Counted from the stretch's first letter, positions 14,526 to 39,670 are shown. The stretch is DNA of 45,564 nucleotides from Candidatus Zhuqueibacterota bacterium (GCA_016783505.1 JADHWK010000016.1:1-45564); one strand, 5' to 3'. A program made the numbers and translations. The notes: a model not told the origin generated them from the letters alone.

Positions 14526-15848
14526 ATGGCCAGAAGAACTTTTAAAGGGGGGGTGCATCCCCCTACCCATAAAGAGCTTACTGAAGAAAAACCGATTGAA
14601 TCTTTGCCCATGCCCGAGCGGGTAATTGTGCCCTTAAAACAGCACCTGGGTGCCCCGGCTGAGCCCATCGTAGAGCGGGGGGCAAAGGTTAATGAAGGGG
14701 ATAAGATCGCCGAGGCCAAGGGATTCGTTTCCGTTCCCGCCCACTCCCCTATTTCGGGAAAGGTCGTCTCCGTAGAGCCTGTGCCCCATCCCTTCGGGGG
14801 GGAGGAGTTGGCGGTGATCATCCAGGCGGATGGGGAAGGTGCCCTAAATGAAGAAATCCAGTTTGACGATGATTATTTAGATCTTAGCCCTGATGAGATG
14901 AAGGATCGGGTGCGGGAGGCCGGATTGGCGGGAATGGGGGGAGCGGCCTTTCCCACCCACGTGAAGCTCTCCCCACCCGAGGATAAGCCCATTGACACCC
15001 TGATCATCAACGGGGCCGAGTGCGAGCCCTATCTTACCGCCGATCACCGTTTGATGGTGGAACAAGGTGAGGACATTATAAAGGGGTTGCGGATTTTCCA
15101 GAAGATCTTGGGTGGCCCCAGGGCGATAGTGGCCATCGAGGGGAACAAGCCGGATGCCATAGAGGCTATGAAAGGGTGGGTTCTTGAAGATGGGGACATT
15201 GCTGTAGTTTCCTTGAAGGTCAAATATCCCCAGGGGTCGGAGAAGCAGTTGATCAAGGCGCTGACCGGCCGCGAGGTGCCCAGCGGGGGACTGCCCATGG
15301 ATGTGGGGTGTCTGGTGCAGAATGTGGGCACTGCCAAGGCGGTGTACGATGCCGTCGCCTTCCGCAAGCCCCTCACCGAAAGGGTGGTGACGGTAACCGG
15401 CCGCGGGGTGGCCGAGTCCAAGAATGTGCGGGCTAAAATTGGGACCCCCTTTAAGGAGCTCATTGACTATTGTGGGGGCTATCGGGAAAACGGCCCCCTG
15501 AAGGTGATTATGGGGGGCCCCCTTATGGGGCTGGCCCAGGCCGACGACGGGGTTCCAGTGATCAAGGGTACTTCGGGCATCCTGGTGCTCCCGGAAAAGG
15601 ACTCCAGGCTGGGAACACCCAGGCCCTGCATCTCCTGCTCCCGGTGTGTGGATGTGTGCCCTGCGGGCTTGGTCCCCAGTTTCCTGGGTTCCTACGTTGA
15701 ATACGAGCAATGGGAAACGGCGGAGGGGATCGGGATAATGGACTGCATCGAATGCGGGTGCTGCACCTACGTCTGTCCCACCAAAAGAAATCTGGTTCAC
15801 CTCATAAAGTATGGGAAACAGATTGTCTTATCAAGTAGGGCCAATTAA
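14526..15848 (+). CDS. rnfC: Rnf complex subunit C
   Basis: GGVHPP, GMGGAAFPTHVK, NGAECEPYLTAD, KYPQGSEKQL, two CxxCxxCxxxCP. Confidence 0.97.
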   Translation: MARRTFKGGVHPPTHKELTEEKPIESLPMPERVIVPLKQHLGAPAEPIVERGAKVNEGDKIAEAKGFVSVPAHSPISGKVVSVEPVPHPFGGEELAVIIQADGEGALNEEIQFDDDYLDLSPDEMKDRVREAGLAGMGGAAFPTHVKLSPPEDKPIDTLIINGAECEPYLTADHRLMVEQGEDIIKGLRIFQKILGGPRAIVAIEGNKPDAIEAMKGWVLEDGDIAVVSLKVKYPQGSEKQLIKALTGREVPSGGLPMDVGCLVQNVGTAKAVYDAVAFRKPLTERVVTVTGRGVAESKNVRAKIGTPFKELIDYCGGYRENGPLKVIMGGPLMGLAQADDGVPVIKGTSGILVLPEKDSRLGTPRPCISCSRCVDVCPAGLVPSFLGSYVEYEQWETAEGIGIMDCIECGCCTYVCPTKRNLVHLIKYGKQIVLSSRAN

Positions 15849-16175
15849 AGAACTTAGCCCCTTCGGGGCAACCGAAATAATGGAATGATGGAATTATGGG
15901 GAAATAAATATATCAGGTAATCAGGATACCAGTGGGAAGGAAATCAGTAGATCAGAACATTCGGAACGATCTTGGGACAGGATAAAACCTGATATTCTGA
16001 TTTACTTTAACTTAGACCTTTCTTAGAAATTCCGATACTTTTAATTAGTGGCTTTGATAAACCCGCTTCTATGGTTTCATCTGGAAAAATGGCCTGCAAA
16101 AGGGGGGGAATCTTCTTTTTAGAAATATTCTTTCCACCGATTTTTTTTACTTAGTAACGGTATTAGAGTCTGGTG

Positions 16176-17210
16176 ATGGAAAAAACGGGATTTCTGTCTG
16201 TTTCTCCCCACATTCGGGATGATGTATCAATCCCGAAGATCATGTATTCGGTGGTACTGTCCCTGCTGCCCGCCCTGGCAGGGGCGGTCTATTTTTTCGG
16301 CTTGCGCTCTTTATGGTTGACGCTGGTCAGTGTGGCGACAGCAGTGGTGGTAGAAACCCTGCTCCAGAAATTGATGGGGCGGGAGATCACCGCCCTGGAC
16401 GGCAGTGCCATCGTCACCGGAATTCTGTTGGCTTTTAACCTTCCCCCCGGGGTGCCCTTCTGGATGCCTGCCGTGGGGTCCTTTTTCGCCATCGCCATTG
16501 CCAAAATTCCTTTCGGGGGATTGGGGTATAATCCTTTAAATCCGGCTCTGGCGGGCCGGGCCTTTTTATTGGCATCTTGGCCGGTGGAGATGACCACCCG
16601 ATGGATCGCTCCAAGGGGTGGCATAACCGCCGTCACCGGCATTGACGCCTTCACCGGAGCCACCCCCCTGGGCGTTCTTAAAGAATCCCATAAAATCCTG
16701 GCCGACCAGGCGGCCTATTCCATCGAAAAGGTGATTCAGGCCCGGGATGCGTTGGATCAACTCTCTTTTTCCTATGGGGACCTGTTCTGGGGTCGGGTGG
16801 GGGGATGTCTGGGGGAGACCTCCGTCCTCCTGCTTTTGATTGGGGCGGTTTTTCTGATGTATAAACGGTATGTCGGCTGGAAGATCCCGTTCAGCTTTCT
16901 GGGGATGGTGATGGTTCTCTCCTGGATATTTGGGGGGGACAAGGGGGGGTTCAGCGGCGATCCCATCTTTCATCTTCTTTCCGGCGGGTTGATCTTAGGG
17001 GCGTTCTTCATGGCTACTGATATGGTGACCACGCCGGTGACCTTTAAAGGTCGGCTGATCTTCGGCACCGGCTGCGGGGTGCTGACGGTGGCCATTCGTC
17101 TCTTAGGGGGTTACCCCGAAGGGGTCTCCTACTCAATTTTGTTGATGAACTTGACAACACCCCTGATTGACCGCTATACGATGCCGAGAATATTTGGGAC
17201 TAAAAAATAA
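16176..17210 (+). CDS. rnfD: Rnf complex subunit D
   Basis: SPHIR, FGGLGYNPLNPALAGRAFL, FMN site TGATPL, GCLGETS, FMATD. Confidence 0.96.
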   Translation: MEKTGFLSVSPHIRDDVSIPKIMYSVVLSLLPALAGAVYFFGLRSLWLTLVSVATAVVVETLLQKLMGREITALDGSAIVTGILLAFNLPPGVPFWMPAVGSFFAIAIAKIPFGGLGYNPLNPALAGRAFLLASWPVEMTTRWIAPRGGITAVTGIDAFTGATPLGVLKESHKILADQAAYSIEKVIQARDALDQLSFSYGDLFWGRVGGCLGETSVLLLLIGAVFLMYKRYVGWKIPFSFLGMVMVLSWIFGGDKGGFSGDPIFHLLSGGLILGAFFMATDMVTTPVTFKGRLIFGTGCGVLTVAIRLLGGYPEGVSYSILLMNLTTPLIDRYTMPRIFGTKK

Positions 17211-17335
17211 CCTAACATTTCAGCCACGAAGGCACCAAGACACAGGGGTAAATAAGAGACTTGAATAAGGTTGAACACTAAAAGGTTGTGGCTGATCGCT
17301 GATAGCTGAACGCTTCTTCCCAATGAGGAGGGAAT

Positions 17336-17497
17336 ATGAAGGTTACAATCGAAATCCGGGATGATCTATACAGGAAGTTAAAAACAATTACAGAGATGGA
17401 TGATTGCTCAATTGACGAAGAAATTGAGATGGCAGTGCTGGTTATGGCTAAGAAGCGCACCTTGATCCAACGACTGATGGAGGAGACAGGGGGCTGA
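17336..17497 (+). CDS. orphan ribbon-helix-helix antitoxin-like protein (53 aa)
   Basis: SD GAGGAGG; MKVTIEIRDDLYRKLKT.. Confidence 0.5.
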   Translation: MKVTIEIRDDLYRKLKTITEMDDCSIDEEIEMAVLVMAKKRTLIQRLMEETGG

Positions 17498-17578
17498 ATT
17501 TGACGAGGCGATGCAAAGGTTAGCTGATTAGGTCCCGATGAAGGAAATTCTGTTTTTAGATGTTGATTAGGCTAAAGA

Positions 17579-18151
17579 ATGAAAAATATTTTAAAACTTG
17601 CCCTTATCCTGATGTTCATCGCCCTCATCGCCGCTGTGGGGTTGGCCCTGGTGAACTTGAAGACGAAACCGATCATCGAAGCCTATAAACGGTGGCAGCA
17701 GGAACAGGCCCGCAGGGAGGTCATACCGGTCGCTGAAGAGGGTGTATTTATATTAAAGGATAACGAGACGGAGTTTCCCTATTATATCGCCTATGTTGAC
17801 CCCGATACCACCAGGCTGGTGGGTTATACCTTTCTGGCTAAAGGAAAGGGCTACAGCAGCACCATTGAGACGGTGGTGGGGGTGGATACCGCTGGGATGG
17901 TGACCGGAATTAAGATCACCTTTCAGCAGGAGACTCCGGGGCTGGGGGCCAGGGCTACCGAGGTCAAATACGGTGATGAAAAACCCTGGTTTCCCCTCCA
18001 GTTCGCCGGGAAGTTGGCCCGCAACTTGGCCGTGGATAAGGACGGGGGCGAAATCCAGTCCATAACCGGAGCTACCATTACCTCCCGGGTAGTCACCAAC
18101 TCCATTAACGAGGGGATGAAGAAGCTTCAAGAAAAACTGAGCTTTAGGTAA
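17579..18151 (+). CDS. rnfG: Rnf complex subunit G
   Basis: N-terminal TM, KGY, ETPGLG, FMN site ITGATITS. Confidence 0.95.
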   Translation: MKNILKLALILMFIALIAAVGLALVNLKTKPIIEAYKRWQQEQARREVIPVAEEGVFILKDNETEFPYYIAYVDPDTTRLVGYTFLAKGKGYSSTIETVVGVDTAGMVTGIKITFQQETPGLGARATEVKYGDEKPWFPLQFAGKLARNLAVDKDGGEIQSITGATITSRVVTNSINEGMKKLQEKLSFR

Positions 18152-18486
18152 TAGTTCACCACGGATAACCACAGAATAACACAGAAAAAGATGAGAAATG
18201 GGCAAATGAAGAACTAGCGAAGTAAATTTCCAAATGGGAATAAGAATATCAGATGATCAGGATACATGCCCGTCCCGAAGGTTCGGGACAGGCGGGTCAG
18301 CGGGAAGAATATCAGTCGTAGACCCGTTTCACCAGGGTGGATCAGAACATCAGGATAAAATCTGATATTCTGATATACCTTTAATTTTGGCTCCGTAAAA
18401 TTTGAGATGTTACCACTAAATTTCAGGGTTGATATCCCGAAACTTCGGGACCGTGGTGAACTGTTACAACTTTAGAAATAGGGATT

Positions 18487-19116
18487 ATGGAACTGAGCAA
18501 GGAATTTTTTAAAGGGCTGTATAAGGAAAACCCCGTCTTTCGATTAGCCCTGGGCCTGTGTCCGGCGTTGGCAGTGTCTAACTCGGTGGAGAATGGGATT
18601 GGTATGGGGGTTGCCGTTACCTTTGTGCTTGTCTGTTCAAATTTTCTTATTTCGTTGATCCGGAAAGGGGTACCCCCCAAGATCCGGATTCCCGTCTTTA
18701 TCGTCATCATCGCCACCTTTGTCACCATCGCTGATCTGGTGATGAACGCCTACCGGCCTGAGCTTCACAAAAATTTGGGCATTTTCGTTCCCCTGATCGT
18801 GGTAAACTGCATCATCCTGGGCCGGGCCGAGGCCTTTGCCTCCAAGCAGGGGGTGGCGGCCTCTTTCGTGGACGGGCTGGGGATGGGTATAGGGTTTACG
18901 CTGGCGCTGGTATTGATCGCCACCGTGCGGGAGATCCTGGGTGCGGGGACTTTTTTAGGCTATCCCCTGCTGGGCCCCGGGTATAAACCGGTGCTGTTGC
19001 TGGTCCTGGCCCCGGGGGCCTTCATCACCATGGGGCTTTTTATGGGGCTGTTCGCCTGGCTGGATCGCCGCCGTAAATTCCGTTATCTTGAGATAGAGAG
19101 GGCCAAATATAAATAA
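18487..19116 (+). CDS. rnfE: Rnf complex subunit E
   Basis: ENPVF..LGLCPALAV, PLIVVNCIILGRAEAFA. Confidence 0.96.
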   Translation: MELSKEFFKGLYKENPVFRLALGLCPALAVSNSVENGIGMGVAVTFVLVCSNFLISLIRKGVPPKIRIPVFIVIIATFVTIADLVMNAYRPELHKNLGIFVPLIVVNCIILGRAEAFASKQGVAASFVDGLGMGIGFTLALVLIATVREILGAGTFLGYPLLGPGYKPVLLLVLAPGAFITMGLFMGLFAWLDRRRKFRYLEIERAKYK

Positions 19117-19280
19117 TTAAACTTTGGCAAATTTAAAATGCTGATTTCTAATCCCGAACCTTCGGGATGGGATTTGGAGCTTGTGATTTATAAAAATTGA
19201 TCATTGCGCTTAGTAAATAATAAAAGGCAGAAAATGATAAAGATGTTGGGCCAGCAGAAGCATAAGAGAAAGAAGGGATT

Positions 19281-19910
19281 ATGGACTTCGGCTACCTGCT
19301 GACGATTGCCATAGGGACGATTTTCATCAATAACTTTGTTCTGGCTCGGTTCTTAGGGCTCTGTCCCTATCTTGGGGTGTCCAGGAAGATGGATTCGGCC
19401 GTCGGGATGGGCCTGGCCGTCATCTTTGTGATGACTATGGCCTCGACGTTTACCTGGCTGGTCTATACCTATCTTCTGTCTCCTGTGACCAACATCTGGG
19501 GAATAGATCTGATCTTCCTGCGCACCATCGCCTTTATTTTGGTCATCGCTTCACTGGTGCAGTTCTGCGAGATCGTCATCCAGAAGGTAAGCCCGCACCT
19601 GTATAAGGCCCTGGGCATCTATCTACCCCTGATTACCACCAACTGCGCTATTTTGGGGGTGGCAGTGCTGAATATTGACGAGTTTTTCCAAAACGGGGGA
19701 CCTATTACGGGAAGTTTCATCTATGCGGTCGTCCAGGGGTTTACGGCCGGGTTGGGGTTTACCTTAGCCCTGGTGCTGATGGCGGGTTTGAGGGAAAAGC
19801 TGGAGATGGCCGGGGTCCCCGAATCCCTGAAAGGGCAGCCTATTGCCTTCATCATGGCCGGGCTGATGGCTATCGCTTTCCTGGGATTTTCCGGGTTCTC
19901 AGTAGGGTAG
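19281..19910 (+). CDS. rnfA: Rnf complex subunit A
   Basis: NNFVLARFLGLCPYLG, LPLITTNCAILG. Confidence 0.96.
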   Translation: MDFGYLLTIAIGTIFINNFVLARFLGLCPYLGVSRKMDSAVGMGLAVIFVMTMASTFTWLVYTYLLSPVTNIWGIDLIFLRTIAFILVIASLVQFCEIVIQKVSPHLYKALGIYLPLITTNCAILGVAVLNIDEFFQNGGPITGSFIYAVVQGFTAGLGFTLALVLMAGLREKLEMAGVPESLKGQPIAFIMAGLMAIAFLGFSGFSVG

Positions 19911-20067
19911 GTGGGGACAATGGAAAATTGGATGGATAAATGGAATATTAAAATATGGGTCAGGCTTTGGTGAAATCAACTTCTATTCGGGGGGATATTC
20001 AGGCGTGAAAAAATGCGCTGTTTTGAAATAGTATCATTTGGTTCTATGAAAATTTTTGAGTGTGTCA

Positions 20068-20131
20068 ACCCCGTTAGATAATCATTTTGCAAGGTTAGGT
20101 ATGTTAGACAGTTGTCAGTATCTAACGGGGT
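20068..20131. repeat. 13-bp perfect inverted repeat
   Basis: ACCCCGTTAGATA (20068-20080) / TATCTAACGGGGT (20119-20131). Confidence 0.7.
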
Positions 20132-20203
20132 CAACCGTGTTGATACATAAAGCGAGATGGTCGCTTTACTCCAAATTATTCCCAAAAGTTTTTATTGACC
20201 GTT

Positions 20204-21232
20204 ATGGATCCATCAATCTATGCCGCATTGATCAGCGTCGGCGTGCTGGGGTTTATCTTCGGCGGCGGGCTGGCCTATGCATCCAAAAAATTTCATGTGG
20301 AGATTGACCCCCGAGCTGAAAGGGTGCTGGATGCCCTTCCCGGCATTAACTGCGGGGCCTGCGGCTACCCGGGGTGTAGCGCCTTCGCTGAAGGGGTGGT
20401 AAACGGGGAGGCGGAACCATCGGGGTGCACCCCCGGTGGAGAGGGGGTTTCCGAGATAGTCTCGGCGATCATGGGGGTGGAGGTGGTGACCGCCACCGCC
20501 CCAGTGGCCGTTGTTCAATGTAAGGGGGGGCGAGGGGAGGCCAAGCAGCATTTCCAATATTACGGTGTGCCGGATTGTAACGCCGCCGATCTGGTAGCCG
20601 GGGGGCATATGGCCTGCCGCTACGGCTGTCTGGGACTGGGGTCCTGCGTTCGGGCCTGTCCCTTCGACGCCATGGAGATGAACGATAACGACCTGCCGGT
20701 AGTTTACGATGACCTGTGCACGGGATGCGGGTTATGCGTGGCCGCCTGTCCACGCAATATCATCGCCCTTATCCCCCGGGAGGCTAAAGTTTACTTAGGA
20801 TGCGTCTCCCGGGATCGGGGTAAGAAGGTCAAGGACGTCTGCTCGGTAGGCTGCACCGGCTGCACCCTGTGTGCCAACCCCAAGGTAACCCCCTCGGGGG
20901 CCATTCAAATGGACGGTTATCTGCCGGTAATTGATTTTAATGTTGAGGATAACCTTCTGGTGGCCGCCTATAAGTGTCCCACCAATTCCTTCGTGGATAA
21001 GCTCAAACATCGGCCCAAATTTACCATCACCAATGACTGTACGGGAACGGGTGAGTGCGTTTCTGCGTGTCCGGTCAAGGACTGCATTACCGGAGTGAAA
21101 GGGGAGAAGTTCGAGATTAACCCCGAGCTCTGTATCAGTTGCGGGCGGTGTCAGCCCGTATGTCCCGAAAAGGCCATTACCGTTATCGGGGCGCTGGCCT
21201 ATCAAGAGCAGTCGTTGGAAGGGGTAGGATAA
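20204..21232 (+). CDS. rnfB: Rnf complex subunit B (polyferredoxin type)
   Basis: N-terminal TM, LPGINCGACGYPGC, CRYGCLGLGSC, several extra CxxCxxC motifs. Confidence 0.96.
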   Translation: MDPSIYAALISVGVLGFIFGGGLAYASKKFHVEIDPRAERVLDALPGINCGACGYPGCSAFAEGVVNGEAEPSGCTPGGEGVSEIVSAIMGVEVVTATAPVAVVQCKGGRGEAKQHFQYYGVPDCNAADLVAGGHMACRYGCLGLGSCVRACPFDAMEMNDNDLPVVYDDLCTGCGLCVAACPRNIIALIPREAKVYLGCVSRDRGKKVKDVCSVGCTGCTLCANPKVTPSGAIQMDGYLPVIDFNVEDNLLVAAYKCPTNSFVDKLKHRPKFTITNDCTGTGECVSACPVKDCITGVKGEKFEINPELCISCGRCQPVCPEKAITVIGALAYQEQSLEGVG

Positions 21233-21285
21233 TTCTATCGGCCAGTGATTTTAATTGACTCTTTGGGTTCCTTTTCATATATTTT

Positions 21286-21777
21286 ATGGCATTATTGTTC
21301 TATTTATTCGCTCTGGTGGTCGCCTTTTCAGCGGTGATGGTGATTATCCGGAGGAATCCGGTCTCCAGCATCCTTTACCTGATGCTGGTCATGTTTTCCC
21401 TGGCTGGGCTTTATGTTCTGCTGGGAGCCCGCTTTATCGCCGCCCTGCAGGTGACGGTCTACGCCGGGGCCATCATGGTGCTCTTTTTGTTCGTGGTGAT
21501 GCTGCTGAACCTGGATAAGCCGGATGGTGTTGAGAGAAAACGGGCCGTAACCCGACTGATTGGGTTTTTAGTGGCCGGGCTGTTGTTGTTTTTGAGCGCT
21601 TTGTTGGTCAGGTCCAATTCCATTCAAAGCTCGGGAATGGACTTTAGACCGATGGGAACGGCCCAGGCGGTGGGGAAGACCCTGTTTACGGATTATTTAC
21701 TGCCCTTGGGAATAGTTCCCGTTTTGCTGCTTGCGGCTGTGCTGGGGGCGGTAGTACTGACGAATAAGAAATTATGA
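21286..21777 (+). CDS. nuoJ: complex I subunit J
   Basis: RNPVSS, LQVTVYAGAIMVLFLFVVMLL. Confidence 0.93.
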   Translation: MALLFYLFALVVAFSAVMVIIRRNPVSSILYLMLVMFSLAGLYVLLGARFIAALQVTVYAGAIMVLFLFVVMLLNLDKPDGVERKRAVTRLIGFLVAGLLLFLSALLVRSNSIQSSGMDFRPMGTAQAVGKTLFTDYLLPLGIVPVLLLAAVLGAVVLTNKKL

Positions 21778-21862
21778 GAATTATGAACCTTATTTCTAAA
21801 GCTGGGTTGTCGGATAGTAACGAATTTTCGGGATGCATCCGACCTACAGCAGAATTTGGGAA

Positions 21863-22168
21863 ATGCAGATTACGTTAGAACATTATCTGTTCTTGTCCGC
21901 TTTTCTTTTTGCCGTCGGGGTAGCCGGGGTGCTCACCCGGCGGAACGCCCTGATAATCTTTATGTCCATTGTGCTTATGCTGAATGGGGTGAATCTGACC
22001 TTCATCGCCCTGGCTCATTATCTTTCCGATATGGTCGGCCGGGTGTTCGTGGGCTTGGGGGTAACGGTGGCCGCCGCTGAGGTAGCGGTGGGGCTGGCTG
22101 TTGTGATCGCCATCTTCCGGAATAAGGGGACGGTTCATATTGATGTATTGAGCCTGACGAAATGGTAG
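21863..22168 (+). CDS. nuoK: complex I subunit K
   Basis: [31 protein letters not shown]; likely ATG 21863. Confidence 0.93.
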
Positions 22169-24000
22169 ACTATATTTGCTTAATCCTCCTCTTCCCCCTG
22201 ATCGGGGCCGGGGTTAACGGGCTTTTCGGGCATAAGCTTTCGGAAAAGACGGTGGGGATCATCGGTTGTTCGGCCATCGGGCTCTCCTTTCTGGTGGCTG
22301 GGGGAGTAATGATCCAGTTGGTGGGTCTGCCTCTAGCTGAGCGAAGGGCCGAAGTTACCCTATTCACCTGGCTTTTGGCCGGTGATTTTCGCATTCCGTT
22401 GGCTCTGTTGGTGGATCAGCTCTCCGGGGTGATGATCCTGGTGATAAGCGGGGTGGGTTTTCTGATCCATATCTATTCGCTGGGCTACATGCACGGGGAT
22501 CGGGGTTTTTCCCGCTACTTTGCCTGGATGAACCTGTCTGTCTTCTTCATGTTGCTGTTGGTGCTGGGAAATTCCTTTCCCATTTCGTTGGTGGGCTGGG
22601 AGGGGGTTGGTCTCTGCTCTTATCTTCTGATCGGCCTCTGGTATGAGGACCCGGCGAAGGCGGCGGCCGGGAAGAAGGCCTTCATCGTAGGCCGGATCGG
22701 TGACTGCGGGTTAATTATCGGTGTGCTGTTGATCTTCGCCACCTTCAAAACCCTGAATTATGTCGCGGTTTTTGAACTGGCAGGGTCATATCCAGGCAAC
22801 AGTGGGGTTATGATTGCCATTGCCTTGCTACTCTTCGTTGGGGCGGTTGGCAAATCGGCCCAGCTTCCCCTATACGTATGGCTGCCCGACGCCACTGCCG
22901 GCCCCCCACCGGTATTAGCCCTACTTACCACCACCACCATGGTCCCCGCTGGGGTATACATGGTGGCCCGGACCCATCCCCTTTATGAACTGGCCCCAGT
23001 TTCATTGACAGTCCTCTTGGTGGTAGGGGGCCTCACAGCAATTTATGCCGCCTCCATCGCCCTGGTCCAGAACGACATCAGGCGGGTGCTGGCCTATGCT
23101 ACCATCAGTCAACTGGGGTATATGTTTATGGCCTGCGGTGCCGGGGCCTATGCCGCCGGCATTTTCCATCTGACAACCTATGCTTTCTTCAATGCACTGC
23201 TATTTTTAGGGGTCGGGAGCATCATCCACGCCCTGGGAGGGGATGGGGACATCCGCCAGATGGGGGAGCTCAAGAAACATCTTCCTATTACCTTTTGGAC
23301 GTTTCTAGTAGCTGCGCTGGCCATCTCGGGTATCCCTGGGTTTTCGGGCTTCTTCAGCAAAGTTGAAATTCTATGGAAGTCCTTGAGCGGGGGCCATCCC
23401 TATGGCTGGGCGGTGGGGACAGTAGTTGCCGGCATGACCTCATTCTACATGTTCCGATTGCTCTATTTGACATTCTATGGCGATTTTCGGGGGAAAAAGA
23501 AAGCCCCAGAGCACATCCAAGAATCACCCCCCTCCATGGGAGTTCCCCTCATCCTATTGGGTGTCCTGTCCCTCTTCGGGGGATTGGGGGGGCTGCGCAA
23601 GCTGTTGGGCGGTGGGGATTGGTTGGGCCGTTTTTTAGCCCCGGTTTTCGAAAGCCCCGGGGTTCGTCACCGGGTCTATCATACCAGCGGCTTTGAATTC
23701 CTGATCATGGGGATTTTCGTGTTCGTAGTGCTGGTGGGTATTGCTCTGGCCTATTTGATGTATCGTAAAGCCCCCGAACTTCCCCAAAAGGCGGCCTCGA
23801 AATTCAGATTGGCCTATCATATTCTGTACAATAAATATTTTGTGGACGAAATCTACAATGTTGTCGTCGCTCAACCGGTGGTAAAGGGCTCCAATTGGCT
23901 ATTGCGCTGGGTTGACGATGGGGCCATTAACAAATCGGTAATGCTCATGGCCTCGGGGGTCGTCTTGATCCTCGGCTATTTTATTTTGCAAGTTCTTTAG
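22162..24000 (+). CDS. nuoL: complex I subunit L (divergent, short C-terminal helix)
   Basis: [57 protein letters not shown]. Confidence 0.93.
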
Positions 24001-24009
24001 GAATAAATA

Positions 24010-24173
24010 GTGAACCTCACTATTCTCTCCTTTATCACCTTTTCATTGGGATAGTCCTCTGGATCGGGGTCTATCCGAAGCCCTTCTTAAGCCGGATGGA
24101 GGCCTCAGTGGGCTATCTGATCCAGCGGGTGGAGTTGGCTAGGGATGGGACACCTAATTCAGACAACCTGTGA
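24010..24173 (+). pseudogene. nuoM: nuoM remnant (N-terminal stub fused out of frame to C-terminus)
   Basis: GTG start MNLTILSFITF, then in another frame IGIVLWIGVYPKPFLSRMEASV..*, the typical NuoM C-terminal motif; located between nuoL and nuoN. Confidence 0.8.
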
Positions 24174-24260
24174 GTTATCTATCATTAACTATCCAAAAGA
24201 ATTTTAAAACCAAGGTTTTTAATCACATATTGATCAGGTTGTTGAAAGAGAGAGTATTGA

Positions 24261-24593
24261 ATGAAACTGCCGAAGCGGGAGAACGCCTACGTACCACCGG
24301 GAAAATTAGCTAGATATCTTCTTTCAGAAATGCATCCTGTTGGTAAGTCGAAGGCCAAATTCTTCCAATCGGTCGGTTTCTATGGGTCCAACGTGGATAT
24401 ACTTGAGAGAAGTTTGGTTATGATTGCACACTCTAACGAGGTCAGCGAGACAAAGAAGACCTCGCATGGCACGAAATATTTAGTTGATGGAGAGATTCAA
24501 ACACCAGACGGGATGCTCGTTCAGTTGAGAACTGTCTGGATTATAGATGCTGGAAAGGACACTCCCCGTTTCGTGACAGCATATCCAGCTTAG
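24261..24593 (+). CDS. DUF6883-like putative toxin
   Basis: KLARYLL..HPVGKSKAKFF..GTKY..RTVWI..PRFVTAYP. Confidence 0.75.
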   Translation: MKLPKRENAYVPPGKLARYLLSEMHPVGKSKAKFFQSVGFYGSNVDILERSLVMIAHSNEVSETKKTSHGTKYLVDGEIQTPDGMLVQLRTVWIIDAGKDTPRFVTAYPA

Positions 24594-24615
24594 ATAATAA
24601 GGGAGGAGCTTTTAG

Positions 24616-24852
24616 ATGATTCGAGAATTGGACTCTGTTGCTTTGGCCTGTGACATTGCAGAGCATGGCCTGAAACAGGGCGATATAGGAGCAGTGGTTC
24701 ACTGCTACGGTGATGGATTGGCTTTTGAAGTTGAATTTGTGACCGCAGCGGGCAAGACAATTACTGTATTGACACTTAGCAGGGATGAAATCCGCCCTTT
24801 GGGGGGGAGAGAAATTCTTCATGCTCGGGAACTGGAACAGACTTTGGCATAA
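24616..24852 (+). CDS. DUF4926-like protein (partner of DUF6883)
   Basis: MIRELDSVAL..GLKQGDIGAVVH..AFEVEF..GKT. Confidence 0.8.
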   Translation: MIRELDSVALACDIAEHGLKQGDIGAVVHCYGDGLAFEVEFVTAAGKTITVLTLSRDEIRPLGGREILHARELEQTLA

Positions 24853-24928
24853 ACAGCTGAAGAGTCAGTGAAAAACGGTTGAGCTTAAACAAATGTCTAA
24901 ATTTAACTGCGGTAAAAATTTGTTCTCT

Positions 24929-25043
24929 TAGTGAACATCTAGATCAGTGTCTAGCCGAAGCCCTTCTTAAGCCGAATGGAGGTTTCTGTGGACCACATGA
25001 TCAAGAGGCTGGAATTGGCCAGGGATGAGGGATTAAATTTCTG
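24929..25043 (+). pseudogene. second, diverged copy of the nuoM 3' end
   Basis: CCGAAGCCCTTCTTAAGCCG identical to first copy; encodes PKPFLSRMEVSVDHMIKRLELARD, with TAG codons just upstream. Confidence 0.75.
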
Positions 25044-25104
25044 TATCGGAAATTGCTGATTATTGTTAGAAGGGCGCAAAACAAAAATCTTCCAAAGGGA
25101 ATCC

Positions 25105-26550
25105 TTGATATCCAGTCCTGAAATAAATATAAGTTCCATCGGGCCGGAGCTGACTGTTTTGCTGACGGCCATCGTCATCCTGGTGGTTGATCGGTGGGTG
25201 GCGAAAAGGAAACCATGGTTGCCATTGGGGCTGGGACTGGCCGGGTTGGCCCTGGCCCTGGGGGTCACGTTGTCGTTATGGAATCAATCCCGGGCTGGGT
25301 TCGGGGGGCTGATCGCCGCCGATAACTATGCTCTGTTTTTTAACCTTATTTTTCTCATTGCTGCCGCCATGACCTTTCTGGTCTCAAGATTTTATCTGGA
25401 CCAGAACGGGATGCAGCGGGGTAAATATTATGTTTTGTTGCTCTTTGCCCTGCTGGGGATGATGGTAACAGCGTCAGGCACGGACCTGTTGACCATTTTC
25501 CTGGGCCTGGAAACCTCGGCCGTTTCCCTCTATGCCCTGGCTGGCTTTCTGCGGGGACGGGTAAAATCCAATGAATCGGCCCTGAAATATATTCTGCTGG
25601 GGGCCTTTTCTACCGGATTTTTTCTGTATGGGGTGGCGCTGGTTTACGGGGGCACGGGGACTACCAATCTGGGGAGAATTGCTGACCACTTAGCCAAGAC
25701 CGACCTTTTATCATCCTCAATAATGCTGGCGGGGATGGGGCTGTTGATAGTGGGGTTCGGCTTTAAGGTGGCGGCGGTGCCCTTTCATTTCTGGGCCCCC
25801 GATGTCTACGAAGGGGCCCCAACCCCGATAGCCGCCTTCATCTCGGTGGGTCCAAAGGCAGCGGCTTTCGCCGCATTCCTGCGGGTATTCAGCACGGCTC
25901 TGCCGGCCCTGAAGCCCCAATGGACCCCGGTGCTCTACGTATTAGCCATCCTGACTATGACCCTGGGGAACCTGGCGGCCCTATCCCAGTGGAACATCAA
26001 ACGGATGCTGGCCTATTCCTGTATCGCCCATGCAGGGTATGTGCTGGTGGCGTTGGTGGCCGGTGAGGAGTTAGGAAATGCCAGTGTCCTCTTCTATCTG
26101 TTCGTCTACAGCCTGATGAACCTGGGGGTCTTCACCATCGCCATCTTGATCAATCGAAGGGGGAAAGGGAATTACCATCTGAACGACTACGCCGGGCTGG
26201 GCACCAGCCATCCCCTCCTGGGGGCGGTCATGGCGCTGTTTATGCTATCGTTAGCGGGAATTCCCCCCACGGCCGGGTTCTTCGGTAAATTCTATATCTT
26301 CGCTGCCGCGGTTAAATCGGACTATATCTGGTTGGCGGCGATCGGAATTCTGAACTGGTTGGTTTCCGTCTATTATTATCTGCGAATCGTCGTCACTATG
26401 TATATGATAAAGCCGGAGATCGCCTTGAAAAGGGTCAGGGTAGTACCGGAATTTGTGGTGGTCCTTCTGGTTTCGGCCCTGGGGATCCTGGGGCTGGGCC
26501 TCTTTCCGTCCGGACTGATGTTCTTGGTGAAAAGCGCGGTGATTTTTTGA
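25105..26550 (+). CDS. nuoN: complex I subunit N
   Basis: LGLE, ESALKY, GFKVAAVPFHFWAPDVYEGAPTP, KRMLAYSCIAHAGY, GIPPTAGFFGK; likely TTG start 25105. Confidence 0.94.
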   Translation: MISSPEINISSIGPELTVLLTAIVILVVDRWVAKRKPWLPLGLGLAGLALALGVTLSLWNQSRAGFGGLIAADNYALFFNLIFLIAAAMTFLVSRFYLDQNGMQRGKYYVLLLFALLGMMVTASGTDLLTIFLGLETSAVSLYALAGFLRGRVKSNESALKYILLGAFSTGFFLYGVALVYGGTGTTNLGRIADHLAKTDLLSSSIMLAGMGLLIVGFGFKVAAVPFHFWAPDVYEGAPTPIAAFISVGPKAAAFAAFLRVFSTALPALKPQWTPVLYVLAILTMTLGNLAALSQWNIKRMLAYSCIAHAGYVLVALVAGEELGNASVLFYLFVYSLMNLGVFTIAILINRRGKGNYHLNDYAGLGTSHPLLGAVMALFMLSLAGIPPTAGFFGKFYIFAAAVKSDYIWLAAIGILNWLVSVYYYLRIVVTMYMIKPEIALKRVRVVPEFVVVLLVSALGILGLGLFPSGLMFLVKSAVIF

Positions 26551-26621: not shown

Positions 26622-27785
26622 ATGCTTCTTTTGCATTTAGCCCTTATCGTCATTCTGAGCAAACTGGTCTCGGCCCTGGCGGCAAAATATAAGCAGCCCC
26701 CTGTTCTGGGGATGCTGTTGCTGGGGCTATTGCTGGGGCCCTCGGGATTTCACTTTATTGACTCGGAGATTGTATTAAAAAGCCTCGCCAAACTCGGAGT
26801 CCTGATCCTCATCTTCATGGTGGGTCTGGAGACAGATTTTGGGGGGATGAGGAGGCAGGGAAGGGCCTCCTTTTTGGCCGCCTTGGGGGGCGTTATCTTC
26901 CCCTTTGGGCTGGGAATTGGAACTGCTTTGTTCTTCAACTATGGATTGCTCGAGGGTTTCGTCATCGGAACTATCCTGACGGCAACCAGCGTGAGCGTCA
27001 CCGCTATGACCCTTATAGATTTGGGAAAGCTCAAGACGGCGGAGGGAACCACAATCCTCGGGGCGGCGATTCTCGATGATATCTTTGGGATCTTATTAAT
27101 TTCCATTATACTTTCCCTTGGGGGCGGTCAGACGAACATATGGGCCGTATTGGGGAAAATCATTCTGTTCTTTTTCATCACTACGGGGATCGGGATTTTT
27201 GCTTTTCCAAAATTGATGCGCTTCTCAGAGAGGCTCCATGTGCCCCACGGGGCGGTCGCCATTGCCCTGGGTCTGGCTTTCTTATATGCCTGGATCGCAG
27301 AACTCGGGAGGATTGCCTATATCACCGGGGCCTATCTTGCCGGGCTCTTTTTGGGAAGAACCACTACCCAGCGTCGTATTATCGCCGGGATGGAAACCCT
27401 GGGACAATCCCTTTTCACAGCTATCTTCTTTGTAAATATCGGGCTGGAAACCGAGCTAAAGGGCTTGAGTGAAAGCTATCTTTTTGTCCTTATCTTTGTC
27501 TTAGCCGCCATATTGGGGAAGGTGATCGGAAGCGGAATCGGAAGCTGGACCTCCGGGTTCAACCGGGCCCAATCCCTCCGGGTGGGCATCGGGATGATGC
27601 CCAGGGGCGAGGTGGCCCTGGTGGTTGCCTCCGTCGGTCTGTCAAATCAACTGATCGGACAGGTCGAGTATTCCGGAACCGTGGTGATGGCCATCCTGAC
27701 GGCTCTGCTGACCCCATTCCTCCTGAAGCTGGCTTTTGGTAAAAAGGAAATTCAGGATAATCCACCGGGGGAACTGCACGCCTAA
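26622..27785 (+). CDS. cation:proton antiporter, CPA2/NapA-like
   Basis: GLETD, TATSVSVT, AAILDDI, GMMPRGEVAL. Confidence 0.92.
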   Translation: MLLLHLALIVILSKLVSALAAKYKQPPVLGMLLLGLLLGPSGFHFIDSEIVLKSLAKLGVLILIFMVGLETDFGGMRRQGRASFLAALGGVIFPFGLGIGTALFFNYGLLEGFVIGTILTATSVSVTAMTLIDLGKLKTAEGTTILGAAILDDIFGILLISIILSLGGGQTNIWAVLGKIILFFFITTGIGIFAFPKLMRFSERLHVPHGAVAIALGLAFLYAWIAELGRIAYITGAYLAGLFLGRTTTQRRIIAGMETLGQSLFTAIFFVNIGLETELKGLSESYLFVLIFVLAAILGKVIGSGIGSWTSGFNRAQSLRVGIGMMPRGEVALVVASVGLSNQLIGQVEYSGTVVMAILTALLTPFLLKLAFGKKEIQDNPPGELHA

Positions 27786-27921: not shown

Positions 27922-28042
27922 GAGAAAGGCCAAAGGATTAAGAAATAGGATTTAGTGGCGAACTGTTACTTTAATTTTGAATATTTGTGCCGAACTTGAG
28001 AAATAATGTGTGAATAATAAAAGATTAGACGAGGGGAGTGAG

Positions 28043-28564
28043 ATGTTATCCAGAATGATTAAAGAGGAATTGATCCTTCTCGATCTGAAATCCAGGACAA
28101 AGGAAGAAATAATCGAAGAGATGGGCCACTTGTTTGTCCATTCCGGATCCATCTCGGACCTGGATGAATTCATCAGAACCATACAGGAGAGGGAGGCTAT
28201 TGAAAGCACGGCCATCGGCGGGGGCGTCGCCATTCCCCACGGGAGGTCGGGAGCGGTGGAGGAGTTGTGCATAGCCTTTGGTGGGTCCAAAACAGGGGTT
28301 GATTTTGGGTCCCTGGATGGAGAGCCCGTTCACCTGATCTTTATGATTGCCTCACCCCTGAGTGCCCCCGGGGAATACCTCCAGGCGGTGGCAAAGATCG
28401 CCCGATTCCTGAAGATGGAAGATTTGAAACATAAGTTGCTGGGCGCCAAAACGAAAGGGGATGTTCTGGAAGTCCTAAGGGAGTTCGATGCCAGGGTGCC
28501 AAGGAAGATCGAGGTAAAACCGAAGGAAGGAAGGACCATATATAAGTCGAAACAGGGAGATTAG
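28043..28564 (+). CDS. PTS EIIA (Ntr/fructose-type) domain protein
   Basis: EREAIESTAIGGGVAIPHGR (phospho-His), GVDFGSLDGEPVHLIF. Confidence 0.9.
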   Translation: MLSRMIKEELILLDLKSRTKEEIIEEMGHLFVHSGSISDLDEFIRTIQEREAIESTAIGGGVAIPHGRSGAVEELCIAFGGSKTGVDFGSLDGEPVHLIFMIASPLSAPGEYLQAVAKIARFLKMEDLKHKLLGAKTKGDVLEVLREFDARVPRKIEVKPKEGRTIYKSKQGD

Positions 28565-28989: not shown

Positions 28990-30117
28990 ATGAAAAGACT
29001 ACGCACCTTTTTTAATGGAATTTATAAGCAGGCCAAAGAGAAGCCGGTCCTGCGTACCCTGATGCCCCTGATCCGGATGATGGACAACTTCATCTTCGAG
29101 TCCGGGGGGGTGGTGACTGATGCTCCCCTGATCCGTGATGGGATCGGCACGCAGCGGTTTATGTCCATGGTGATTGTGGCGATTGCCCCGGCCACCATCG
29201 CTTCGGTCTATTTCTTCGGCTGGCGTTCGCTGTCCGTGATTGCGGTCTCCTATATTTTTGGCGGGATAACCGAGATTATCTTCGCCATCGTCAGAAAGGA
29301 ATCTATCAACGAGGGGCTGCTGGTAACCGGGATACTCTTTCCCTTAACCCTGCCCCCAACTATCCCCCTTTGGATGGTGGCCGTGGGGGTTGTGGTTGGT
29401 GTGGCCCTGGGGAAGGAGGTGTTCGGGGGCACTGGGAAGAATATCTTCAACCCGGCGCTGGTGGGGAGGGTTTTCCTGGCCATCGCCTTTCCGGTGGAGA
29501 TGACTACCAAATGGACAGCACCTGTGGGCGGTTTCTGGGGTGGTTTTACAACTTATCTTCCCGATGCGGTCACCTCAGCTACACCCCTGACCATTTTCAA
29601 ATCAACCGGCCAGCTCACCACCAATCTGGATTTGCTGTGGGGCAATGTGGCCGGGAGCCTGGGGGAAACCTCCGCCCTCCTGCTCATATTGGGGGGCCTG
29701 TTCCTGATGCTGACTAAGGTGAGCAACTGGCGCATACCGGTGGGCTATCTGGGCTCGGCCTTTGCCTTCGGATGGGTTATGTGGCTGCTGGTTCCCCAAA
29801 AGTTTGCCCCCCCAGTATTTCAACTGCTATCCGGAGGGCTGCTTTTCGGAACCTTCTTCATGGCCACCGACCCGGTCTCGGCCCCCATAACGAACCTGGG
29901 AAGGTGGATATATGCCCTTTTGCTCGGTATCATTACCATCATTATTCGGGGGTTGAGCGGATATGTGGAGGGGGTGATGTTTGCCATTTTATTCATGAAC
30001 ATCTTTTCATCCTTAATCAATGACATGACCGTTCCCCTCATTGCCAGGCGCAGGGAGCGGAGGGTTAAAGCCTCACTGAGTGCACGTCTTGGGAGTCCCA
30101 AAAATCTAACGAAATAA
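28990..30117 (+). CDS. nqrB: NqrB/RnfD-family subunit
   Basis: NqrB-like N-terminal extension, GKEVFGGTGKNIFNPALVGR, FMN site TSATPL, GSLGETS, FMATDPVS. Confidence 0.85.
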   Translation: MKRLRTFFNGIYKQAKEKPVLRTLMPLIRMMDNFIFESGGVVTDAPLIRDGIGTQRFMSMVIVAIAPATIASVYFFGWRSLSVIAVSYIFGGITEIIFAIVRKESINEGLLVTGILFPLTLPPTIPLWMVAVGVVVGVALGKEVFGGTGKNIFNPALVGRVFLAIAFPVEMTTKWTAPVGGFWGGFTTYLPDAVTSATPLTIFKSTGQLTTNLDLLWGNVAGSLGETSALLLILGGLFLMLTKVSNWRIPVGYLGSAFAFGWVMWLLVPQKFAPPVFQLLSGGLLFGTFFMATDPVSAPITNLGRWIYALLLGIITIIIRGLSGYVEGVMFAILFMNIFSSLINDMTVPLIARRRERRVKASLSARLGSPKNLTK

Positions 30118-30266
30118 TGTTCTAAACAAGTATATCAGGTGATCAGGACATCAGTGGGAAGAATATTAGAAAATCAGGAGAACAGTATAGGATAGATGAG
30201 TTAAATGTTGCACGGAGAAAATAATCTGGTGTTCTGGTAACCTAATCCTCTTCCAACTGATTTACT

Positions 30267-30521
30267 GATCAGTCCGGCGTCAGTCGGGCGGGCCTATTGC
30301 AGAACTACCGCATCGGTCAGGCGCCCGACTGATAGGAATAAATTCCTATGCTAATCCAAATAAAGTATGTTGAAACATACTGTAATCAGTCCCGAAGTTT
30401 CGGGGCTTTCTTTGAAATAGCGTGATAATTTATTATCACGCAAATAGGAAACCAGTCCCAAGATCTTTACGACGATTTCAGAGTTGTGCCACAGGCCCGG
30501 GCGCCTGACCGACCTGACGGA
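30267..30521. mobile_element. MITE/REPIN-like composite element copy 2 (different interior)
   Basis: Same ends as 35107-35354; interior hairpins ATAGGAATAAATTCCTAT, AGTATGTTGAAACATACT, GCGTGATAATTTATTATCACGC. Confidence 0.75.
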
Positions 30522-30591
30522 TATTCTTATTTACTTTAATATCAGTAAAGGCCTAATGAAGAAAATGCGGCACTAAGTTCAGGAGGAACCC

Positions 30592-31203
30592 ATGACCAAA
30601 AAACTTAAGCAGAGATTGTGGATGATCGGTCTAATGGCCATAATGGGTGTTATTTCAGCTTCGCTTTTAGCCAGCATCTACCAGTATGCTCAACCCATCG
30701 TGGAACGGAACCGAAGGATTAAGCTCTATTCGGCGGTGCTGACCGTGTTGAGGGTTGATTATTCAATGCCGGATATGGAAGTAGTTTTTCAGGATAGGAT
30801 AAAAATTATCGAACAGGAGGGGCTGACCCTTTATGAAGGATATTCTGATAAGGGACGACTTTTAGGCTATGCCCTGCCCCTCAAGGGTGGGGGGTTCTGG
30901 GGGCCCATTGCCACGGTCCTCGGCCTTGAGCCCGACTGGGAGACCCTCAAAGGGATCGAGATTATTGAAAATGTGGAGACGCCGGGACTGGGTGCCCGGA
31001 TCACCGAACCGGCTTTTAAAGCCTCTTTTAGGGGGCTGAAGGCCACCCCCAACATCACTTATGTGCTGCATAAGGAGCCGGAAAGACCCAATGAATTTCA
31101 GGCCATAACCGGGGCCACAGAGACAAGTAAATCTATTGCCAGGATCTTTAACAAGGGGATCAGACAATATCGTGGAGTTTTTGAAATATCCCTTGCGCAA
31201 TGA
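30592..31203 (+). CDS. nqrC: NqrC/RnfG-family FMN-binding subunit
   Basis: GGGFWGPI, ETPGLGARI, FMN site ITGATETS. Confidence 0.85.
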   Translation: MTKKLKQRLWMIGLMAIMGVISASLLASIYQYAQPIVERNRRIKLYSAVLTVLRVDYSMPDMEVVFQDRIKIIEQEGLTLYEGYSDKGRLLGYALPLKGGGFWGPIATVLGLEPDWETLKGIEIIENVETPGLGARITEPAFKASFRGLKATPNITYVLHKEPERPNEFQAITGATETSKSIARIFNKGIRQYRGVFEISLAQ

Positions 31204-31334
31204 AAATTGAAAAGTGTCTCGAACATTCGGGGGAAAATGCAAAATAGTGAAGAACAAATAACTTTGCATTTTGATATTTTCATTTTTCAATCAAGCTTAT
31301 GCGTGCCGGTGCATATCATTTGGATAAAATAATT

Positions 31335-31504
31335 ATGGCAGAAAAATTAATCGTTGAAGGATTCAAACAATTTGGAGGAAAGCATTGCCAGACGACGTCA
31401 CTGAAGAATGTATCTCTTTACTAGACAATTTGAAACAGAAGATTATTGAATGTTATGAGATAGAAGAACGAGCATTTCAGATATTAAGTAATACTGTAAA
31501 ATGA
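31335..31504 (+). pseudogene. internally deleted BtrH-N/DUF4872-like remnant
   Basis: MAEKLIVEGFKQFGGKHCQTTSLKNV then frame-shifted tail IIECYEIEERAFQIL*. Confidence 0.4.
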
Positions 31505-31608
31505 AGTGGCAAAACAAGCCCAATAACAGATCAACTACGCCATTCCGATTATTAAAAATCCAATAGGAAAATGTATTATTTGGGCAAGGTGAATAGAAAG
31601 GAGATGCT

Positions 31609-32280
31609 ATGGCTGAAACTGGTATCCAAGTTCAAGCAATACCGATGGTGAAGCCCGGGTTGTCGCTCTGGCATAAGGTCAAAAAGAGCCGAAGTTACAC
31701 CGACTTAGTCAGGGGGCTGTGGGCGGATAACCCCACCTACCGCATGGTGCTGGGCATGTGTCCCACCCTGGCGGTGACCAATACCGCGGTGAACAGCGTG
31801 GCCATGGGTCTGGCCACCATGTCGGTTACCATCTTTAGCTCGGTCGCCATATCCATCATTCGCCGCATCATTCCCCGGCGGGTGCGTTTGGCGGTCTTTA
31901 TGATCATTATCGCCACCCTGGTCACCTTCGTGGATCTGTTTTTCAAAGCCGTCCTGCCGGACATCAGCGAAGCCCTGGGTGCCTATGTGGGGCTGATTAT
32001 CACCAATTGCATCATTCTGGGGCGGGCTGAGGCCTTTGCCTCGATCAACAAACCCTGGTACTCTTTCTTAGACGCCCTGGGAGTGGGACTGGGATTCACC
32101 GCTTCGCTTACCATTCTGGGCATGGTGCGGGAATTCTTAGGATTTGGCACCATCTTCTACCAGGAGGTCGCTGGCGCCGGTTGGACCGATTGGGCGATTA
32201 TGATCATGCCCCCGGGCGCCTTCTTAACCCTTGGGGTATTATATGGAATATTTAACAGCATCTCAAAACCTAAAGAATAG
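31609..32280 (+). CDS. NqrD/RnfE-family subunit
   Basis: DNP..LGMCPTLAVT, GLIITNCIILGRAEAFA, MPPGAF. Confidence 0.9.
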   Translation: MAETGIQVQAIPMVKPGLSLWHKVKKSRSYTDLVRGLWADNPTYRMVLGMCPTLAVTNTAVNSVAMGLATMSVTIFSSVAISIIRRIIPRRVRLAVFMIIIATLVTFVDLFFKAVLPDISEALGAYVGLIITNCIILGRAEAFASINKPWYSFLDALGVGLGFTASLTILGMVREFLGFGTIFYQEVAGAGWTDWAIMIMPPGAFLTLGVLYGIFNSISKPKE

Positions 32281-32289
32281 GAGTAGATA

Positions 32290-32871: not shown

Positions 32872-32972
32872 TTGCAGAGGAAACAGGGATGATTATAAAC
32901 AGTTGCTTCAAGGTTGCACCTTGAAGTATTACAAAAAAGTTCAGGTTACACTATGGGTAGGTTTTAATAAAA

Positions 32973-33494: not shown

Positions 33495-33631
33495 CCTATC
33501 ACTTTTAACTTTAAGGTAAATAATTCTTTCAAGGTTCAACCTTGAAAGAACAAATGTTATGGAATTTTCACAAGATTCTCGTAAGATAAATTTATATTGC
33601 TATTTAACTAGTTTAAAAAACAGGAAGGATT

Positions 33632-35080: not shown

Positions 35081-35106
35081 ACAGTAAAGAGCACATTGGG
35101 AAATCC

Positions 35107-39656: not shown

Positions 39657-39670
39657 AGTGAAAACAATCT

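Follow-up and report, generated by a model that had tools for sequence, protein, structure and literature searches.

The number of antiporter-like subunits in complex I's membrane arm is not fixed. It varies in the 2M enzymes of Nitrospira and Chloroflexi, reportedly described by Chadwick and colleagues in 2018 according to papers that cite them, and in the five-pump Complex_I_3 of Ca. Manganitrophaceae. In the parts of the reports available to us, the lateral helix of NuoL varies in these enzymes by one unit of ~26 residues at the same place (PMC9040806, PMC7117926), with a 26-residue insertion there in enzymes that carry an extra pump subunit (Yu et al. 2022, PMC9040806). The subunit number also varies at the locus described here, but in the opposite direction, minus one subunit and minus 24 residues. 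This locus, a nuoJKLN cluster in which nuoM is reduced to remains, lies at positions 21286-26550 of a 45,564-nt contig (GCA_016783505.1, JADHWK010000016.1:1-45564; hereafter the window) from a Candidatus Zhuqueibacterota bacterium. As contig C66, the window belongs to the metagenome-assembled genome of this uncultured bacterium (2.51 Mb, 89 contigs, 59.9% complete). Pumping residues are lost here as well, and the redox genes appear to be, which is unreported for the 2M enzymes, and the locus has neither the extra nuoM nor the ~26-residue insertion that mark them. The literature searched, whose coverage leaves out most subscription journals, yielded no account of an arm that lacks NuoM and has a shortened helix. 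The anatomy is striking and well confirmed, and it rests on one lineage.

Outside complex I, the Mrp (CPA3) antiporters contain a two-antiporter unit that, in the accessible part of the source, can be extended to three or four subunits or shortened to one (PMC7419157). The present arm shares with Mrp the two antiporter-like subunits, the NuoK-like and NuoJ-like elements and a lateral helix spanning one subunit; it differs in that its proteins are Nuo orthologs and not MrpA or MrpD (200-245 bits with the Mrp models vs. cut-offs >900). MrpB, MrpF and MrpG (PF04039, PF04066, PF03334) were not found in the incomplete genome, and MrpE was not searched. An earlier reading made from the DNA alone (the sequence-only reading) had proposed an Mrp-like geometry for the L+N module; this holds for the subunit content, which parallels the two-antiporter unit, but not for the identity of the proteins. 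As far as the available text of two further reports goes, isolated antiporter modules conduct protons without the rest of the enzyme (2024, PMC11496545), and mutants of the E. coli lateral helix indicate that the helix serves mainly stability and that an altered L-M geometry can lower pumping (Belevich et al. 2011, PMC3274701). Those systems are laboratory constructs, whereas the one described here is the natural state of a genome and is known from its genes alone.

The canonical complex I arm and this cluster have in common the NuoJ, NuoK, NuoL and NuoN orthologs and the gene order J-K-L-(M)-N, which was present in 21 of 21 nuo operons (20 loci) from 40 sampled genomes, all of them kin only at the level of the same domain; in each of these operons an M-like gene stands right after nuoL. 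The cluster differs from the canonical arm in that nuoM is a stub, the NuoL helix is 24 residues shorter, nuoA-D, nuoH and nuoI were not found, and residues of NuoL and NuoK are replaced. Its features, on the plus strand like all the genes around it, are the following:

21286-21777, plus strand: nuoJ, 163 amino acids, open frame (PF00499, 136.3 bits vs. a cut-off of 33.2)
21833-22168, plus strand: nuoK, 111 amino acids, open frame (NF004320, 101.1 vs. 57)
22162-24000, plus strand: nuoL, 612 amino acids, open frame (TIGR01974, 641.7 vs. 407.5)
23915-23938, plus strand: place of the in-frame 24-residue loss in the NuoL lateral helix, residues ~585-592 (tail lengths, alignment)
24011-24173, plus strand: nuoM stub A, 163 bp (start codons, then the 3' end in another frame)
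24261-24852, plus strand: gene pair DUF6883 (24261-24593; PF21814, 108.2 bits) and DUF4926 (24616-24852; PF16277, 76.2 bits)
24929-25059, plus strand: nuoM stub B, a second copy in which ~40 nt present in stub A are absent (direct repeats D1, 90 nt, 81%, and D8; alignment)
25105-26550, plus strand: nuoN, 481 amino acids, frame open from 25063 (TIGR01770, 455.9 vs. 332.6)

To judge from these profile scores, the four proteins are clear complex I orthologs. NuoJ scores below the NCBIfam equivalog cut-offs (125.7 vs. 154) and above that of Pfam. NuoN is of the N type, with 258-452 bits against the N genes of the sampled genomes vs. 53-82 bits against their M genes, and with 154.5 bits on the NuoM model vs. 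455.9 on TIGR01770; its 481-residue form was already on record in the protein database. As the sequence-only reading had stated, nuoJ directly follows rnfB (53-nt gap) and the frames of J, K, L and N are all intact. Between nuoL and nuoN there is a 1.1-kb stretch without a nuo frame.

This stretch shows that nuoM was deleted in place at the nuo locus. Stub A starts with a GTG ten bases after the nuoL stop, continues for 14 codons that resemble the NuoM N-terminus and then reaches a stop; after it, ~40 NuoM C-terminal codons follow in another frame, up to position 24173. Both parts resemble the NuoM ends of relatives, and roughly 450 nuoM codons are missing. The stub had been given earlier as 164 bp; it measures 163 bp, is out of frame and has a second copy. 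The absence of nuoM from this locus stands. The sequence-only reading had overlooked the second copy, the DUF6883/DUF4926 pair and the residue losses in NuoL and NuoK described below. Stubs A and B have the same start and the same 3' end and differ at 17 of 90 nt (81% identical). Since both share the start-to-3'-end junction, the order of events would have been deletion of nuoM, duplication of the stub around the cassette and 19% divergence; alternatively, stub B was imported from a relative already carrying the stub. An origin of the stubs from the two nuoM genes of a 2M ancestor was ruled out by the common junction pattern and the 81% DNA identity. The two genes of the cassette are 22 nt apart and have a G+C content of 0.445, vs. 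0.53-0.56 in the flanks. In the part of a preprint available to us, the DUF6883/DUF4926 pairing is a BECR-Tox3 ribonuclease toxin with its likely immunity protein (bioRxiv 10.64898/2026.08.28.747851), and the inserted pair has the gene composition of such a predicted toxin-immunity pair. PADLOC gave no match for it.

The arrangement was also recovered from other sequence data. Five sequencing runs hold 86-100% of the sampled words of positions 23500-25600. A contig from a run of another study (X5) covers 23187-24433 with 0 differences, and two more (X7, 23450-24094; X9, 23450-23981) have 2 differences each and both cover the short tail of NuoL. A public metagenome contig (L053) matches 23142-24988 with 1 mismatch, and identical NuoL, NuoJ and NuoK proteins are on record from the contigs of three assemblies. 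No intact nuoM was present in the run contigs examined, which show presence and not absence. Positions 1-226 of L053 carry an unrelated permease-like gene that meets nuoL at a short stretch common to both, and the junction is probably a chimera made in assembly.

The second peculiarity of the locus is the C-terminal end of NuoL. From NKYFVDEIY to the end it has 56 residues, the same count as obtained before, and 53 from FVDEIY. Among the 120 best homologs, 118 have a tail of 76-81 residues by this latter count (mode 77); the remaining two are a partial protein and one that the motif pattern failed to catch, with its full segment visible. A search with the C-terminal region alone added 120 further homologs, all 120 with tails of 77-144 residues, and 14 of 14 NuoL of the sampled genomes have 74-106. 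The tail is shorter than in all 238 homologs measured (range 76-144), none of which shares the short helix. Alignment places the loss in a single 24-residue gap after the residues WVD, with the last membrane helix kept and following at once; this refines the 20-26 missing residues estimated in the sequence-only reading. In relatives, the missing segment carries conserved G-x-x-N-G and R-x-x-Q-T-G positions. In the AlphaFold2 model of NuoL (mean predicted local distance difference test, pLDDT, 89.3; predicted template modelling score 0.89), helix 15 occupies residues 509-536, the pieces of the lateral helix residues 540-547, 549-556 and 559-583, and a coil at 584-587 leads into the last helix (588-611). 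The lateral helix falls short of the length by which that of complex I spans NuoM to reach NuoN.

The lost unit is the one that is present twice in long-tailed NuoL (+25 to +29 residues in three NuoL). These three proteins with a duplicated helix unit (tails of 102-106 residues; loci L037, L041 and L048 of genomes G005, G031 and G032) each have one adjoining M-like gene. A strict rule of 25 residues per subunit was dropped, the long-helix NuoL of the sample not lying beside two nuoM genes. At L048 and at another locus, L052, no N-like gene follows within the stretch covered. The NuoL nearest to ours among the sampled genomes (55% identical; L033, positions 701-3073, contig 21 of genome G039) has a frame that continues beyond the Q-S-G position and enters the nuoM region, the last membrane helix being absent; this is a frameshift or a sequencing error at the 3' end of that nuoL.

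Residues that are nearly invariant in the family were compared in all four subunits. For NuoL, 118 full-length homologs were aligned (two partial ones were dropped) and columns at least 95% conserved were considered. Our NuoL differs at 24 of 182 such columns (20 substitutions and 4 gap columns) and keeps 158, whereas the other sequences miss a median of 1 and a maximum of 10. Residues 240-266, the family's most conserved motif, hold eight of the 20 substitutions in 26 of 178 columns (P = 0.0027). H256T, H340Y, K344N and D401V are among the changes, and E147, K231 and K400 are kept; we take the lost positions to be those that contribute, in the central proton path, the His of helix 8, the His and Lys of helix 11 and the Asp of helix 12. 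These clustered core losses speak for a change or loss of the pumping role of NuoL, as far as alignment can tell.

In NuoK, which misses 1 of 16 conserved columns, a Val (residue 47) occupies the position of the first conserved Glu and the second Glu is kept. The first Glu is found in 4 of 4 solved NuoK chains aligned and in at least 90% of 21 homologs, and our protein has no acidic residue nearby in that helix; this residue is presumably essential for coupling in E. coli. NuoJ keeps the helix-3 motif, misses 3 of 11 conserved columns and has a Gly where the conserved Glu of the last helix stands in E. coli NuoJ. NuoN, aligned to solved NuoN/NdhB chains, keeps the helix-5 Glu and the Lys residues of helices 7, 8 and 12. 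It differs at 17 of 160 conserved columns (3 short proteins dropped), nearly all conservatively, the maximum among the others being 12 in a much more uniform set. The proton-path and quinone-link residues conserved in complex I are complete in NuoN, with losses in NuoL and NuoK.

The nuoJKLN frames comprise ~1,370 codons (4.1 kb) without a stop or frameshift. On a rough estimate from mutation spectra, ~0.1 neutral substitution per site would have left >10 stop codons in them. The stubs are 19% diverged, yet nuoJKLN are free of such lesions, which speaks for continued purifying selection on the frames, at least as the codons indicate. Among the 40 of 165 strain differences listed, those in nuoN are 6 synonymous and 1 non-synonymous (Ala to Val), and 5 of 8 in the neighbouring CPA2-type exchanger gene are synonymous. 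The retention under selection claimed in the earlier reading has these signs in its favour, though the 6:1 ratio comes from a small sample.

Other complex I genes were sought in the genome. PF00361 was found only in nuoL and nuoN, and no match was obtained for NuoH (PF00146) or NuoD (PF00346). A tblastn search with 58 open reading frames (ORFs) from four canonical operons returned only J, K, L, N and three NuoEFG-like loci; there was no NuoA-D, NuoH or NuoI. As 40% of the genome is absent from the assembly, little weight attaches to these negative results. The three separate NuoE/F/G-like loci and a MenA-type prenyltransferase gene lie on contigs C61, C68, C49 and C30. The former are probably soluble hydrogenase or dehydrogenase modules; the latter encodes a MenA-type enzyme (TIGR00751, 114.5 vs. 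102.15) and hence menaquinone is likely. The claim that nuoA-I are absent, made for the window, extends to the assembled genome for A, B, C, D, H and I, but not for genes resembling nuoE, F and G.

We tentatively read the locus, with a probability of roughly 40%, as a lineage-specific remodelled remnant of the complex I membrane arm that is uncoupled from redox chemistry. NuoJ, NuoK, NuoN and NuoL would be the remainder of the arm, the redox and quinone modules being absent as far as a 60%-complete genome shows. With NuoM gone, NuoL would pack directly against NuoN, and the shortening of the helix by ~36 Å (24 residues x 1.5 Å) would let the terminal helix of NuoL still clamp the proximal subunits. 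The first NuoK Glu would be the link towards the quinone site, and it is lost here. The loss of this Glu and of the NuoL core residues indicates that the module is most likely not a redox-driven pump, and its gene products suggest that it is probably no longer an ordinary respiratory one. Selection would have kept nuoJKLN since the loss of nuoM, and the guess we favour is a free-standing membrane module whose NuoN may conduct protons or cations and whose NuoL may serve mainly as a structural clamp. Of the multimer predictions envisaged in the sequence-only reading, a co-fold of NuoL with NuoN residues 100-481 was made. It gave an interaction score (ipSAE) of 0.39 vs. 0.00 for the best of 3 controls, with runs agreeing in at least 89% of contacts and a partner pLDDT of at least 73. 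Of 80 solved complexes, 58 reach the mark it passed, as do 2 of 110 mismatched pairs; at scores of up to 0.60, only 7 of the 80 do so, together with both mismatches. The co-fold gives weak support to NuoL-NuoN packing, and resemblance to the solved L-M and M-N pairs may account for the pass.

Several observations weigh against the remodelled-remnant reading. AlphaFold2 is unsure at the very junction of NuoL (pLDDT <50 over residues 585-592). Each of the three long-helix NuoL is accompanied by a single M-like gene, and the accessible part of the report on enzymes with additional subunits states that helix length is not strictly tied to subunit number (PMC9040806). The 59.9% completeness of the genome and the MenA-type enzyme leave room for a quinone pool and for unseen nuo genes. 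The polymorphism sample is tiny, 7 nuoN sites in only the 3' third of the gene, and the stub copies may be other than neutral, or recombination may have brought in copy B. The losses in NuoL and of the first NuoK Glu also look like early decay, nuoL and nuoN are separated by a predicted toxin-immunity cassette within the operon, and a second lineage with nuoM loss and a short helix was not found, the best homologs being 57% identical.

A more ambitious reading, somewhat unlikely in our view, is that of a natural "0M" derivative of complex I, in which, once the redox module and NuoM were gone, selection has kept J-K-N-L as a stand-alone two-antiporter machine and the helix has been trimmed by exactly one repeat. 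The sequence-only reading had called this the mirror of the 2M enzymes. The comparison is numerically sound, a 24-residue loss vs. a 26-residue insertion of the same unit, but the tie of helix to subunit number that it draws on is not strict. The residues replaced in NuoL and NuoK count against a functioning pump, and also against the antiporter that the sequence-only reading had suggested as a possibility.

A serious rival, though one to which we give rather low odds, is a decaying, non-functional relic: nuoA-I were lost and left the distal genes without a use, nuoM was deleted, the cassette entered as a mobile element, NuoL was deprived of 72 bp and of key residues and NuoK of its Glu, and the frames have simply not yet been hit. 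The number of altered conserved columns in NuoL (24 of 182, vs. at most 10 in 118 homologs), with radical changes of core residues, fits this course, as do the Glu-to-Val change in NuoK, the 3 of 11 columns missed by NuoJ, the cassette and stub debris inside the operon, the partner genes not found in the 59.9%-complete genome and the restriction of the arrangement to one lineage. It is harder to reconcile with ~1,370 codons free of stops and frameshifts while the stub copies differ by 19%, with the 6 synonymous changes among 7 listed in nuoN and with the retention of all functional residues of NuoN. The NuoL changes, moreover, are clustered, with 158 of 182 conserved columns kept, and the deletion is in frame, removes one repeat unit and spares the terminal helix.

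Quite unlikely is a complete M-less complex I with two antiporter-like subunits, moving fewer protons per NADH or ferredoxin, whose nuoA-I genes would lie in the unassembled 40% of the genome. The incompleteness of the genome, the three NuoEFG-like loci and the MenA-type prenyltransferase, which suggests menaquinone, would suit it; a short helix would fit an enzyme without NuoM; and scattered nuo clusters are documented, e.g. the nuoJKLN of Wolbachia in the part of the source available (PMC3616963). Against it stand the Val in place of the first NuoK Glu with no acidic residue nearby in the helix, the lost NuoL core residues, the empty searches, by two Pfam families and by relatives' proteins, for NuoA, B, C, D, H and I, and the placement of the NuoEFG-like genes at three separate loci, which appears typical of soluble modules.

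The proximity of rnf genes had led the sequence-only reading to consider coupling to Rnf. The features upstream of nuoJ are:

14526-21232, plus strand: rnfC (14526-15848), rnfD (16173-17210), rnfG (17579-18151), rnfE (18487-19116), rnfA (19281-19910) and rnfB (20195-21232), assigned by Pfam
21233-21285, plus strand: rnfB-nuoJ spacer, 53 nt, in which 21255-21283 resembles a promoter (agreement at 10 of 12 consensus positions, a consensus match only)

The rnfC, D, G, E, A, B set is full, and RnfB scores 261.2 with NF005503 vs. a cut-off of 252. No match to nuoJ, K, L or N occurs near rnfB at any of 43 rnfB loci of other genomes, 30 of which hold at least 2 kb after rnfB; these loci include the two nearest RnfB (60% and 58% identical), the 60% one, nearest among the species genomes, coming from a Ca. 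Tariuqbacter metagenome-assembled genome. None of the 21 nuo operons adjoins rnf either. The rnfB-nuoJKLN synteny search therefore came out empty, and the linkage is peculiar to this lineage. The reading we prefer for the adjacency is a rearrangement scar, left when whatever preceded nuoJ was removed, with no functional link; the rnf genes are treated here as neighbours of the nuo genes and not as members of the nuo module. A fusion of RnfB to a NuoI remnant was ruled out, the protein being colinear with the nearest RnfB to residue ~340 of 345. A true Rnf-Nuo hybrid, in which NuoJKLN docks to Rnf and adds ion translocation to ferredoxin:NAD+ oxidoreduction, is very improbable: the common strand, the 53-nt spacer without a terminator-like site and a window that is as a whole a run of bioenergetic operons are in its favour, but the linkage is absent from all 43 rnfB loci and 21 nuo operons, and the spacer contains the promoter-like site. 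We know of no structural precedent for such a hybrid.

That the nuoM gap and the short end of nuoL arose from faulty assembly or binning, as might be feared from a metagenome-assembled source and from the chimeric first 226 nt of the related contig L053, is close to refuted, since contigs from other studies' runs cover the junctions with 0-2 differences, L053 has 1 mismatch and five runs hold 86-100% of the sampled words.

The homologs also bear on the position of the organism. In a set of 5.8 billion proteins, the closest homologs of NuoL and NuoN reach 57% identity. Apart from one near-identical 2-kb contig, nothing above 47% identity came from a scan of metagenomes. By these protein identities the source organism is a deep lineage.

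Downstream of nuoN, the nearest gene, given as context only, is:

26622-27785, plus strand: CPA2-type cation/proton exchanger gene (PF00999, 217.5 bits; TIGR00932, 155.7, below the cut-off of 238.3)

A PTS-EIIA/PtsN-like gene directly 3' of it (28010-28564) is a possible regulator of the exchanger. Positions 28990-36844 hold a second Rnf/Nqr-like gene set, comprising D-like, G-like, E and A genes, an ORF of 173 residues without a family, an RnfC-like gene and an NqrF-like gene. The RnfC-like protein has flavin mononucleotide and iron-sulfur domains and the NqrF-like protein 2Fe-2S, flavin adenine dinucleotide (FAD) and NAD domains, so that the set combines features of Rnf and Na+-NQR. V-type ATPase genes (I, c, E, C) are present at 37683-44913; where the catalytic subunits would be expected, an ORF of 597 residues (43120-44913) has a G+C content of 0.33 and no Pfam match at E 0.05. 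The spacers between the upstream rnf genes are unusually long (165-369 nt). Two of them share repeated elements 83-86% identical (15900-16013 and 18236-18386), and a 20-nt inverted repeat, 95% complementary, lies between rnf genes (18269-18288 and 19152-19171). A low-G+C island (0.27-0.29) at 8536-11068 contains three ORFs, one with a weak Phage_Mu_F match; in the accessible part of the preprint on these toxins, MuF domains are named as carriers of BECR toxins of the kind encoded by the DUF6883 gene in the nuo cluster (bioRxiv 10.64898/2026.08.28.747851).

Complex I variants with added pumps and a longer helix are known, and the reverse was found neither in the literature searched nor among the 238 NuoL homologs. 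If the "0M" derivative were real, it would represent a step from complex I back towards an Mrp-like architecture, and the lateral helix would act as a ruler or clamp of modular build, lengthening as well as shortening with the number of subunits. Should the module work, it would be a natural minimal system for studying the helix as a clamp as opposed to a coupling rod, and it would show how far antiporter modules can act alone. If it is decaying, the locus would offer a rare snapshot of the dismantling of an operon, in which the redox genes went first, a pump subunit next and the core residues of the distal pump after that, with NuoN still intact.

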